Source: a virus (taxonomy: Duplodnaviria; Heunggongvirae; Uroviricota; Caudoviricetes). Taken from it: a stretch of DNA of 23,042 nucleotides. Under the pieces are notes generated by a model that ran no database searches, had not been told where the DNA came from, and was given only the letters and a program-made list of their open reading frames with translations. Made by a program: the position numbers and the translations under genes. Positions within the stretch are counted from its first letter, which is position 1. Each line of letters opens with the position of its first letter. The DNA lies in the IMG/VR virus record IMGVR_UViG_2563366964_000005, positions 1 to 23,042 of that record. The stretch is one strand, 5' to 3'. Shown in pieces: positions 21,295 through 23,042 of the stretch.

Positions 21295-22034
21295 TGCAAC
21301 CGTTAATGCCGCCCATTAATACCCCTGACAATCTGTTTCACGATGGGAACCCTACAACGGGGGTTGAAGGGACTATAGTCCCCGCAGAACATCTTAATAA
21401 TGAGCAAGGCTCTATTCGCGATGTTCAAAGCGAGATGATTGCCATTCTTACTGCTGCTGCGATGGAACCAGATTCAACTGCTGGTCAGCTTCTGGCAGCG
21501 TTGAATAAACTCTATGCCCCCGGTAACGATACTCTGGGAGCGCTGGCCTCTCTGGTTGGTGCTGCAAACAAACTCCCGTACTTCACTGGTCCTAAAAACG
21601 CGGCCCTGACAGACCTGACGGCTTTCGCCAGAACGTTGCTTGGTCGTAGCGATGCTGAAGGTGTTCTCTCAGACCTTGGTTTGGGAGAAGCGGCAAAGAG
21701 GAATGTGGGGACAGGAGAAAATCAGGTACCGGATATGAACAGCTTTGGTAACTCATTGACCGCCAATGGATACCAGAAATTACCTGGGGGGATGATTATT
21801 CAATGGGGGAGTTTTTATGTCTCACCAACCGGAGGAAGTGTTGGAACAGTTGATATAACATTACCTGTAGCTTTCCCTGCTGCTTGTCGTTCGGTAAACG
21901 CTCTTATTTCAACTAATGATCCTTCTGCCCGTTCTGTGGGCTTTGATATTGGAAGTACCAACAGAACTAAAATCAGATTTACTTACACTTCTGCTACAAC
22001 AAATTCAATTTACTGGATGGCTGTGGGGTATTAA
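21294..22034 (+). CDS. tail fibre protein (short; constant N-terminal part plus a likely exchangeable C-terminal part)
   Basis: The ORF track lists 21264..22034, but the likely start is the ATG at 21294 (TAATG overlap with upstream stop, AGGAAA SD). N-terminus [20 protein letters not shown]...[11 protein letters not shown] is fibre-like; composition turns AT-rich after about 21690. Confidence 0.7.
21664..21689. other. candidate serine-invertase crossover site (gix/hix-like): TTCTCTCAGACC-TT-GGTTTGGGAGAA
   Basis: 26 bp with 12-bp imperfect inverted half-sites (10/12 symmetric) around a 2-bp core, with the ...ACC-NN-GGT... centre typical of Gin/Hin/Cin/Pin sites as I recall them; located in the tail-fibre gene where composition changes. 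Confidence 0.45.
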
Positions 22035-22036
22035 CT

Positions 22037-22468
22037 ATGGAAAAGACATATTATTTTAATCCCTCTGATTCGGGATTTTATATTTCACCAGATAGCCAAA
22101 CCATTCCTGAGAACGCTACGAAAATAAACTTTACTATTTATTCTGAGTTCGCAGGAGTTGCATGGCCTGATGGTAAAATACTTGGTTCAGATAAAAATGG
22201 TTTTCCAGCATGGCAGGATGCGCCACCACTTACCAGCGAAGAATTAATCTCAATCGCTGAATCAAATAAACAGCGATTAGTTAATCAGGCCAACGAATAC
22301 ATGAACAGTAAACAATGGCCTGGTAAAGCGGCGATTGGTCGTCTGAAAGGTGAGGAACTGGCGCAATATAATTTGTGGCTGGATTATCTGGACGCACTGG
22401 AACTGGTCGATACTTCCAGTGCGCCAGATATTGAATGGCCTACTCCTCCGGCAGTTCAGGCCAGATGA
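22037..22468 (+). CDS. tail fibre assembly protein (chaperone)
   Basis: 143 aa; immediately after the fibre gene; C-terminal DTSSAPDIEWPTPP motif typical of this family. Confidence 0.75.
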   Translation: MEKTYYFNPSDSGFYISPDSQTIPENATKINFTIYSEFAGVAWPDGKILGSDKNGFPAWQDAPPLTSEELISIAESNKQRLVNQANEYMNSKQWPGKAAIGRLKGEELAQYNLWLDYLDALELVDTSSAPDIEWPTPPAVQAR

Positions 22469-23042
22469 CATCCGGCGCGGTACTGGTATCTGTTGCCGTC
22501 ACCGCGTCAATGTAATCCAGCACAGTGTTAAGTCGGGTGGTCTCTGCCTGCATCAGCTTCCGCCCGGCCTGCAATTTCAGTTGAATCAGACTAATGGAAG
22601 CCATTGCAGTATCAATCAGTGACTGACGTTGTGCTTCTGCCGCGTCTACTGCGGCGCTATGCTGTGTCTCAGTATCCGTCACCCATTTCTCACCATCCCA
22701 TTTATCGTATGGCGTTAACGGGGCGATAGTGGTTGTTTTTTCGGGGTAATCACCCGGAGTTGTGATTTCTTTGGCGTCTCCCGTTTCGGTGTTATAGACG
22801 ATTTCACCGCGATGGTCTGGTACATATTCCCATGAGTTAAAATCTGCAGAGCGGCAGATTGCATAACCAGCTTTGTAGGTGCCTGGAGCATCTAAACAGG
22901 AATATGCCGGAATGCCGACACCAACAGCAAGATATTCAGTTGAAGCTGAAATATACTCCCGACTCATGACGTCAAAGTTATAAACAGTAATTTCTCCTGC
23001 CATAGTGGCAATTAATTCACTGTTTAATTCTGCGTTATTCAT
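22440..23042 (-). CDS. second tail fibre assembly protein, opposite orientation (partner of an alternative fibre C-terminus expected beyond the window)
   Basis: 200 aa; HRGEIVY and C-terminal DTSTAPDVIWPELP motifs typical of this family; convergent with and overlapping the + strand chaperone gene by 29 bp; its start codon is at the window edge. Confidence 0.75.
   Translation of the reverse strand: MNNAELNSELIATMAGEITVYNFDVMSREYISASTEYLAVGVGIPAYSCLDAPGTYKAGYAICRSADFNSWEYVPDHRGEIVYNTETGDAKEITTPGDYPEKTTTIAPLTPYDKWDGEKWVTDTETQHSAAVDAAEAQRQSLIDTAMASISLIQLKLQAGRKLMQAETTRLNTVLDYIDAVTATDTSTAPDVIWPELPEE

Follow-up and report, generated by a model that had tools for sequence, protein, structure and literature searches.

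Invertible fibre segments have long been known from phages Mu and P1 and from the e14 element, and the invertase Hin acts on a promoter rather than on a fibre gene. In Mu, the G segment and the invertase Gin follow gp47/gp48 as the last module before the right end, in the order constant fibre part (Sc), site, Sv-U, opposite-strand U'-Sv', site and invertase. The Fis/enhancer-dependent invertases, which include Hin, Gin, Cin and Pin, have been defined as a group, and their enhancer of 65 bp is separated from a crossover site by about 100 bp (PMC3798978). The P segment of e14 has been inverted experimentally by PinE, PinQ and PinR at the same repeats that are found in the locus described here, with PinQ and PinR of other prophages flipping it in trans and dominating over PinE (PMC12529663).

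We analyzed a stretch of 23,042 nucleotides, hereafter the window, which derives from contig KE136832.1 of Escherichia coli KTE40, assembly GCA_000408025.1, and is filled by a Mu-like late region of complete appearance. The contig continues beyond the window end, and features located there are given in the coordinates of a source-contig stretch (L003) that shares 11,749 bases with the window, all identical (window coordinate = L003 + 11293). The prophage is Mu-like, of the transposable-phage type, its host is E. coli KTE40 and the switch is at its right end, in the position and with the layout of the G segment and gin in Mu. The earlier note had proposed that this end has the layout of the Mu G, P1 C and e14 P inversion systems, and the proposal held up when the partner site, the silent fibre C-terminus and the invertase were all located. 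A non-random site with a partner site, a silent C-terminus and an invertase on the same contig supports the view that the end of the KTE40 prophage very probably carries a working-type invertible host-range switch. The features of the locus are listed in Table 1.

Table 1. Features of the KTE40 switch region, in window coordinates unless marked L003.
Feature	Position	Strand	Remarks
Baseplate gene, Mu gp48 / YmfQ family, 190 aa	20722..21294	+	PF10076 Phage_Mu_Gp48; ORF list
Tail-fibre gene, current configuration, 246 aa	21294..22034	+	ORF; PF21882; ATG 21294, stop at 22034
Constant fibre part (Sc), outside invertible segment	21294..21675	+	Identity to the prophage L021
Left 26-bp crossover site, TTCTCTCAGACC TT GGTTTGGGAGAA	21664-21689		Core TT 21676-21677
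Invertible segment, window part	21676..23042		Extends to window-equivalent 23535 (L003 12242)
Variable fibre C-terminus now expressed (Sv)	21678..22034	+	Gp53-like_C
Tail-fibre assembly chaperone for expressed C-terminus, 143 aa	22037..22468	+	Caudo_TAP
Second, convergent chaperone (silent set), 200 aa	22440..23042	-	Caudo_TAP_N + Caudo_TAP; ATG is the final three bases of the window
Silent fibre C-terminus	L003 11749-12241	-	Tail-collar (Collar) domain
Right (partner) site, TTCTCCCAAACC AA CCTTTTATGGAT	L003 12229-12254		Inverted relative to left site
Serine recombinase (invertase), Resolvase-family, 186 aa	L003 12339-12899	+	97 bp from right site

Crossover sites and the invertible segment

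The left site had been described in the earlier note as a 26-bp sequence inside the fibre gene with 10/12 symmetric halves around a 2-bp core, and both its coordinates and its symmetry were confirmed; the two mismatches between the half-sites are at positions 6 and 9. Searches of the window with up to three mismatches returned this site alone and gave matches in none of 100 shuffles, and the same result was obtained with a loose gix/pix-type consensus (sole match in the window, 0/100 shuffles). The site is in-frame within the fibre ORF, where it provides codons for ...SDLGLGE. A chance palindrome was rejected as an explanation on the basis of this uniqueness, the shuffles and the partner site at the other homology boundary. 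A turn to AT-rich composition had been placed exactly at the site. The drop in G+C is real, from 0.50-0.55 directly upstream to 0.36-0.40 in the following 100-500 bases; however, it is gradual over about 150 bases, without a sharp step.

Beyond position 23042 we found, besides the invertase gene, the two other elements that an inversion system of this kind was expected to have there, namely an inverted copy of the 26-bp site and, on the minus strand, an alternative C-terminus for the fibre that contains a Collar domain. The two sites share a 15-bp perfect inverted repeat, which consists of the inner half, the core and one adjacent base, and the cores TT and AA are one dinucleotide in inverted orientation. 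The 26-bp sites of Mu and KTE40 both have an AACC NN GGTTT centre. The prophage ends at L003 13005, 106 bp past the invertase gene and within the host gene ybiW; no com/mom genes, a feature of Mu at this place, were found after the invertase.

Upstream, the 3' end of the baseplate gene overlaps the start of the fibre gene in TAATG. The constant N-terminus of the fibre extends for about 128 residues as far as the core, and the Gp53-like C-terminus is fused to it. After ...SDLGL, at least six unrelated C-termini are found among relatives whose N-terminus is 98-100% identical, and relatives that are about 72% identical in this part include the Collar-form fusion ...LGLGEGSALPVG. Apart from E. coli KTE40, one SRA run is the only known source of the exact 246-aa fibre protein. 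ORFs and domains agree with the earlier reading of a fibre C-terminus and chaperone on the plus strand, facing a second chaperone on the minus strand that starts at the window end. Neither the fibre nor the chaperones were assigned to a family by NCBIfam, whose hits to the invertase were all below cutoff.

Measured core to core, the segment is 1860 bp. In the present state it encodes the end of the 246-aa fibre followed by the 143-aa chaperone, and inversion in silico produced a Collar fibre of 291 aa whose gene overlaps, in TAATG, that of the 200-aa chaperone behind it, with the fibre in frame in both orientations. The mechanism proposed for this arrangement is that the local small serine invertase would bind the two 26-bp sites and cut at the 2-bp cores, after which the DNA would be rotated by 180 degrees and religated so that the 1860 bp between the cores flips. 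The constant N-terminus would thereby be fused either to the Gp53-like C-terminus, as in the window, or in frame to the tail-collar C-terminus, each with its own chaperone downstream. As the fibre tip differs by orientation, a lysogen population should release virions of two receptor specificities, and the two fibres would be expected to give different host ranges. The suggestion that the cassette is a compact variant is correct relative to Mu (1860 bp compared with about 3.06 kb for the G segment, and fibres of 246 and 291 aa compared with 504 aa for the annotated Mu S fibre), but the segment is the known P segment of e14, with precisely its length, and not a new design.

Relation to the e14 P segment

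Aligned with the P segment that e14 carries in strain RM10466, the KTE40 segment shows a single mismatch over the 1860 bp that both measure core to core, and similarity to e14 fell to background outside both cores. The inner half-sites, the core, the two chaperones and the two fibre C-termini are all as in e14, in which the genes are named stfP/tfaP/tfaE/stfE, the fibres are 215 and 260 aa and the counterpart of the 143-aa chaperone is annotated as a tail fiber assembly protein. The inner half and core of the left site are identical to the P-segment repeat TTGGTTTGGGAGAAGG, which was defined experimentally (PMC12529663), and the same inner half-site and core are found in the Citrobacter phage Omnitron and in a P2-like prophage. 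The e14 cassette is carried by a P2-like prophage as well, at 99.1%. Among E. coli genomes, both orientations are represented by e14 copies at one chromosomal place.

The upstream baseplate module of e14 is Mu-like (gp44-gp48), as in KTE40; e14 and KTE40 differ in Sc, in the outer halves of the sites and in the invertase. We rejected the possibility that the prophage is e14: the flanks are unrelated past the cores, the combination of e14 constant part and pinE-mcrA flanks is absent, and a full Mu-like late region is inserted in ybiW, in contrast to the icd-integrated remnant that is e14. A cassette nearly identical to that of e14 between foreign flanks identifies the system as the e14 P cassette in a foreign Mu-like backbone and as a known kind of switch.

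The flanks themselves have two different affinities. The left backbone and a second E. coli prophage (L021) are 99.93% identical, with the identity ending 5 bases past the core and unrelated sequence beyond, and the right end with the invertase matches a Citrobacter prophage, the invertase protein at 100%. At high identity the KTE40 backbone is in no complete E. coli genome, in which the sole match was 72.7%, and the constant-side half of the site gave no match in a scan of species-representative genomes. In the explanation favoured here, the P cassette was inserted between the Sc and the invertase that belong to this phage, through recombination at the cores or no more than about 2 bases away from them. 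With 1 difference from e14 in 1860 bases, the graft is recent. One conceivable route is inversion twice in succession, each time between a site of one prophage and a site of another on the same chromosome, which would swap their cassettes.

The invertase and its regulatory signature

The invertase matched the structure of Gin invertase with E = 3e-55 and that of gamma-delta resolvase with 3e-21, and it retains the catalytic serine S9, R42, the GR minor-groove motif (G138-R139) and the STLYK recognition helix. It is about 50% identical to Gin. The nearest enzymes among sequenced phages are phi80 PinL and those of mEp237, HK225 and Omnitron (72-73% identity), and two features link KTE40 to the phi80 PinL-type invertases, namely the motif GRYNFRNILSAAQYESDL in helix E and TTCTCCCAAACC AA CCTTT as the site on the invertase side. 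Omnitron has the full switch layout of KTE40. Our literature search found no experimental work on this phi80 PinL-like clade.

An internal Fis-bound enhancer had been expected in the invertase gene. The Gin-like enzyme is present; however, no enhancer was recognised in its gene. The element sought was 60-65 bp long with two Fis sites in the 5' part of the gene, and it was placed by fitting the published size and distance (PMC3798978) to a conserved Fis-like pair, that is, two Fis sites 48 bp apart. By a crude consensus with a background of 0.26 per kb, this pair is kept at +30/+78 in four of four Gin-type genes, with a summed score of 16.4, and lost in four of four KTE40-clade genes, where the sum is 10.0-11.4. 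With the same crude consensus, no alternative pair above background was found in the first 300 nt of the clade genes; an enhancer may be located elsewhere.

Residues associated with Fis and the enhancer were also compared. The helix-B triad that contacts enhancer DNA (Hin K47, R/K48 and R/K51) is K, K, E in KTE40, so that one of the three basic residues is missing, and K, R, A in Omnitron, phi80 and mEp237; all three are basic in Gin, PinE and the enzyme of FDAARGOS_1303, and in the P2-like ST866 enzyme the triad reads N, R, R. The Fis-contact patch on helix 1 of the DNA-binding domain (Hin Q151, R154 and L155), which is Q, R, L in four of four Gin-type enzymes, is lost in KTE40, where two of the three residues differ (A, R, E), and reads E, R, L in Omnitron and E, E, R in phi80 and mEp237. 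At the dimer-locking positions of helix E, in Hin numbering, KTE40 has N105, R107, I109 and I88, and does not have F105, M109 and the F88 pocket of Hin. Substitution of the helix-E dimer-locking residues of Hin leads to Fis-independent activity, and F105N and F88I are gain-of-function substitutions in that enzyme (PMC4513852); in KTE40 those residues sit in a different background.

The enzyme class and the site architecture are shared with Hin/H of Salmonella, Cin/C of P1 and Min of p15B, and core cleavage and subunit rotation are presumably shared as well (PMC3798978, PMC4513852). In contrast, most of the Fis-dependence residues of those systems are not conserved in the KTE40 invertase, and their in-gene enhancer was not recognised by the crude consensus. 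The missing Fis-contact patch, enhancer-contact residue and Fis-site pair, together with the equivalents of F105N and F88I, lead to a reading of Fis-independence, and the sequence of the clade suggests regulation unlike the textbook Fis/enhancer mechanism. The broader combined proposal, that a widespread PinL-like clade works free of the Fis/enhancer checkpoint (or with another activator) and that the e14 cassette was grafted by the invertases themselves, is tentative and in our judgement rather doubtful. If the clade is indeed regulated differently, it would offer insight into serine invertase control and a simpler tool for engineered inversion. If the graft was made by invertases, invertible segments would be portable host-range modules traded by site-specific recombination.

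Alternative readings and wider relevance

The switch could be present with hybrid sites that suit the local PinL-type enzyme poorly, in which case flipping would be performed in trans by PinE, PinQ or PinR. Precedent comes from K-12, in which PinQ and PinR of other prophages invert the e14 P segment (PMC12529663); moreover, PinE and the local enzyme share no more than 53% identity, and the invertase-side outer half of the right site matches the inner half at only 5/12 positions, compared with 8/12 in functional e14. Yet this weak half-site is kept at 11/12 bases in a C. freundii relative with a 100% identical invertase, and its CCTTT is kept in all four members of the invertase clade. The conserved recognition helix and GR motif also speak for the local enzyme, and the inner half-site TTCTCCCAAACC adjoins the same clade in Omnitron, phi80 and mEp237, which marks it as a cognate sequence. 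We consider action in trans unlikely, and flipping in KTE40 itself would presumably be carried out by the local invertase.

Another view is that the cassette was acquired by recombination and inversion has since ceased, as in phi80, where pinL lies beside decayed collar-fibre fragments. Unlike KTE40, both phi80 and mEp237 combine this invertase clade with pseudogene remnants of the segment and one remaining site, and in the FDAARGOS_1303 relative one site-like sequence stands alone, without a partner. The exact flipped 291-aa fibre was not present among the roughly 15 billion proteins of one collection, and the flipped junction had no match in species-representative genomes. Both orientations are known for the identical cassette in e14; for the KTE40 prophage itself these searches gave no flipped copy, and the chimera is known from two datasets only, one assembly and one SRA run. 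Against a frozen state, however, nothing in the switch is broken or out of frame, be it the two sites, the two C-termini, the two chaperones or the invertase. Selection on the invertase is indicated by the presence of its exact protein on about 468 contigs from Enterobacterales. With the recent date of the graft, this leaves the view highly improbable. The least credible reading takes the palindrome as a mere coding motif (DLGLGE) of short tail fibres without a recombination role. A conserved protein junction is indeed common to many fibres, but this explanation, to which we give practically no weight, is refuted by the inverted partner site exactly at the other homology boundary, the adjoining invertase gene, the two orientations of e14 and the inversion shown experimentally at these repeats (PMC12529663).

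The working switch favoured here adds nothing new in principle, as its cassette is already that of e14. It does provide a clean natural case of a host-range cassette moved into an unrelated backbone with its boundaries precisely at the recombination cores, and the P2-like copy and the variety of other C-termini on the same backbone indicate that such modules move freely among enterobacterial phages. A recent link has been drawn between the e14 cassette and defence against phage T2 (PMC12529663), so the copy of this cassette in a second prophage could matter for the phage resistance of the host. An invertible switch also explains why assemblies of such prophages frequently break at this point.

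Sites and genes of the tail-fibre switch

An exact look-up of the fibre protein identified the source of the window as E. coli KTE40 (GCA_000408025.1, contig KE136832.1). The KTE40 locus L003, which extends past the window end, was identical to the window across 11,749 shared bases (window coordinate = L003 + 11293). The window starts ~74 bases from the start of the contig. The flanking sequence supported the interpretation of the region as an invertible tail-fibre switch, and the features described by the earlier note within the window were all borne out. The predicted 26-bp left site in the fibre gene, with a 2-bp core, reads TTCTCTCAGACC TT GGTTTGGGAGAA; its half-sites are identical at 10/12 positions and it lies in frame within the 246-aa ORF. 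Composition turns AT-rich at this site, with G+C of 0.50-0.55 before and 0.36-0.40 after it, and analysis of ORFs and domains confirmed a fibre C-terminus and plus-strand chaperone followed by a minus-strand chaperone starting at the window end. No second copy of the left site with ≤3 mismatches was found elsewhere in the window, and the left site was the sole match in the window to a loose gix/pix-type consensus; for both searches, 0/100 dinucleotide-preserving shuffles used as controls gave a match. The convergent chaperone genes share a 29-base overlap at their 3' ends (22440-22468), exactly as in e14, and an 18-nt imperfect inverted repeat on either side of it (22378-22395 / 22504-22521, 83% complementary) mirrors the likeness of the two chaperone C-termini.

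Features of the KTE40 switch and matches of the locus to other prophages
Feature	Coordinates	Strand	Remarks
Tail-fibre ORF, 246 aa	window, ATG 21294, stop at 22034	+	Gp53-like C-terminal domain
Left site	window 21664-21689		
Chaperone gene, 143 aa	window 22037-22468	+	Caudo_TAP
Second chaperone gene, 200 aa	window 22440-23042	-	convergent; start codon is last window triplet
ORF with phage tail-collar domain	L003 11749-12241	-	
Right site, TTCTCCCAAACC AA CCTTTTATGGAT	L003 12229-12254		
Resolvase-family gene, 186 aa	L003 12339-12899		
Match to L021 (another E. coli prophage)	L003 9000-10389		99.93%; ends 5 bases beyond core, unrelated cassette follows
Match to L001 (e14)	L003 10372-12247		99.7%; site to site
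Match to L022 (C. freundii prophage)	L003 12223-13005		92.7%; invertase protein 100% identical; reaches prophage end

Past 23042, the anticipated alternative minus-strand fibre C-terminus, inverted partner site and serine invertase gene were likewise present. Together with the left site, a stretch of the right site (its inner half, its core and one neighbouring base) makes up a 15-bp perfect inverted repeat, and the invertase matched Gin. In-silico inversion of the 1860 bp core to core fused 132 fibre residues (~128 constant ones that end at the core, then GLGE, which the inner half-sites of the two segment ends encode in the same way) in frame to the Collar C-terminus. The resulting protein has 291 aa, and the 200-aa chaperone comes next via a TAATG overlap. 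The TT (left) and AA (right) cores are one dinucleotide in inverted orientation; in the established mechanism of serine invertases, the same core dinucleotide is required to religate after 180-degree rotation (PMC3798978, PMC4513852). The KTE40 invertase would rotate the DNA by 180 degrees between the cores and religate it, exchanging C-terminus and chaperone together. Database searches with the predicted fibre, flipped junction and constant-side half-site revealed no flipped copy of exactly this prophage; given how rare the prophage is, this negative result carries little weight.

An e14 cassette in a Mu-like prophage

Judged from its sequence, the KTE40 system consists of the e14 P cassette carried by a Mu-like prophage with a PinL-type invertase, and the switch belongs to an already known kind of system. 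The earlier note had suggested a compact variant; the small size was confirmed, but it is that of e14's segment and not a new design. In a Megablast search of 5426 complete E. coli genomes, matches of up to 99.9% identity started at window 21673-21676, inside the left site, and none reached upstream of it. Ungapped comparison with e14 of strain RM10466 revealed 1 mismatch across the 1860 bp core to core, and identity just outside both cores was at background (26-34% over 60-200 bases). The same cassette occurs in opposite orientations in RM10466 and 00-3076, between the e14 baseplate genes and pinE-mcrA, and both orientation states were seen among ten more contexts of the identical chaperone. 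The e14 P segment repeats, TTGGTTTGGGAGAAGG / CCTTCTCCCAAACCAA, are the inner half-sites of the KTE40 prophage. In a 2025 study, inversion of the K-12 P segment at these repeats by PinE, PinQ and PinR was demonstrated by experiment; the authors also reported that T2 adsorption is blocked by an inversion product and that the inverted form is present in 33% of 562 E. coli genome sequences (PMC12529663).

Upstream of the switch, the window comprises a Mu-like phage late region. Positions 1-21294 hold a contiguous late operon (DUF1804, Mu portal, Mu F, gpG, protease I, gpT head protein, gp37, sheath, tube, tape measure, DNA-circularisation protein and gp44-gp48), in which a 548-aa protein with no Pfam match is the probable large terminase. 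At >73% identity, this operon was found in no complete E. coli RefSeq genome. The switch holds the position that the G segment and gin occupy in Mu. Host ybiW homology begins at L003 13006, 27 nt ahead of the normal ybiW stop, and similarity to the Citrobacter prophage ends at L003 13005, which makes the invertase the final gene of the phage. The prophage right end at 13005, ...CGCCGCGCTACA, finishes in CA like that of Mu; unlike in Mu, com/mom do not follow the invertase. The insertion yields an 832-aa ORF call replacing the 810-aa ybiW gene. Several TTTTGCAC / GTGCAAAA repeats in the final 100 bp of the prophage (within L003 12900-13010, window-equivalent 24193-24303) may be transposase-binding sites.

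The same cassette (99.1%) was also found in a P2-like prophage of E. coli ST866 (L008 4368-7479), within a P2-type tail module (gpV, W, J, I and an H-like 366-aa collar fibre). This prophage, a third backbone for one cassette, has its own 192-aa recombinase, whose residue at the 'always lysine' position of helix B (Hin K47) is Asn. Omnitron and the Citrobacter relative carry complete switches, and phi80 and mEp237 retain only one site plus fibre pseudogene fragments. In phi80 (L005 3733-3924, 3916-3941), an intact-looking invertase-side site, TTCTCCCAAACC AA CCTTTCAAATAT, lies beside pinL and the pseudogene fragments of the fibre cassette; the annotated pinL is C-terminally truncated compared with mEp237 and lacks the STLYK recognition helix. 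The sole related backbone among complete E. coli genomes was FDAARGOS_1303 (L009 9902-11963), whose fibre is 338 aa long and which encodes one chaperone and a Gin-type recombinase. Its single site-like sequence is TTCTCACATACC TT GGAATTGAAAGG (L009 10272-10297); no partner site or second cassette was found in this backbone, and its switch looks locked or decayed.

The invertase and its Fis/enhancer features

The KTE40 invertase matched the Gin crystal-structure sequence over residues 1-185 (E = 3e-55) and gamma-delta resolvase (E = 3e-21), and it retains the catalytic Ser, Arg42, the Gly-Arg minor-groove motif and the STLYK recognition helix. In its sites and predicted chemistry it clearly resembles a Gin-type invertase. 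It shares only 53% identity with PinE and ~50% with Gin, and 72-73% with the enzymes of phi80 (PinL), mEp237, HK225 and Citrobacter phage Omnitron. McLean et al. reported that, among invertases, only the Fis/enhancer-dependent ones conserve Hin K47, R/K48 and R/K51 plus Q151, R154 and L155 (PMC3798978). At these positions, which vary across its clade, the KTE40 enzyme reads K, K, E and A, R, E; Gin-type enzymes all have Q, R, L, and their helix-B triad is basic except in ST866 (N at position 47). Helix E reads YNFRNILSAAQY in the KTE40 clade versus FFFHVMGALAEM in Gin-type enzymes. The residue equivalent to Hin-105 is Asn in the clade, and in the KTE40 enzyme Hin-88 is additionally replaced by Ile; Hin F105N and F88I are gain-of-function, Fis-independent substitutions (PMC4513852).

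A pair of Fis-like 15-mers centred at +30/+78 is kept in 4/4 Gin-type genes. The pair is 48 bp apart and spans 63 bp, and in Mu ~95 bp separate its nearer centre from the gixR core, in agreement with the enhancer described in the literature, which measures 65 bp and lies ~100 bp away from a site (PMC3798978). It was lost in 4/4 KTE40-clade genes, with no alternative above background; this is a lead and not a finding, because the Fis score, a consensus count, is crude and an enhancer could lie elsewhere. Loss of Fis/enhancer features in the clade is accordingly proposed as a lead, and the KTE40 enzyme is not assigned to the Fis/enhancer-dependent subfamily as a demonstrated member.

Mosaic structure and origin of the cassette

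Comparison with L021, L001 and L022 placed the recombination joints at the crossover sites. The outer half-site TTCTCTCAGACC is common to KTE40, L021 and L022, and the KTE40 outer half-site CCTTTTATGGAT is the counterpart of CCTTTTGTGGAT in L022; outer half-sites go with the backbone and inner half-sites with the cassette. Proteins with a 98-100% identical constant N-terminus have at least six unrelated C-termini, all diverging directly after ...SDLGL. The Collar form was found in relatives ~72% identical. The chimeric 246-aa fibre is known from KTE40 and one SRA run only, and the graft is therefore probably recent.

The joints fall within ~2 bases of the cores, which fits an exchange of cassettes catalysed by an invertase: with two prophages on one chromosome, two successive inversions between their sites would exchange the cassettes. 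Identical joints would, however, result from recombination through the conserved repeats of 12-16 bp, and for this reason we only infer the invertase-catalysed exchange.

Dozens of database proteins with the constant N-terminus are 'partial' at 125-131 aa, which shows that assemblies break systematically at or just past the crossover site; contigs L021, L023 and L004 terminate inside the cassette. Such breaks are expected if cultures mix orientations or a genome repeats cassette copies.
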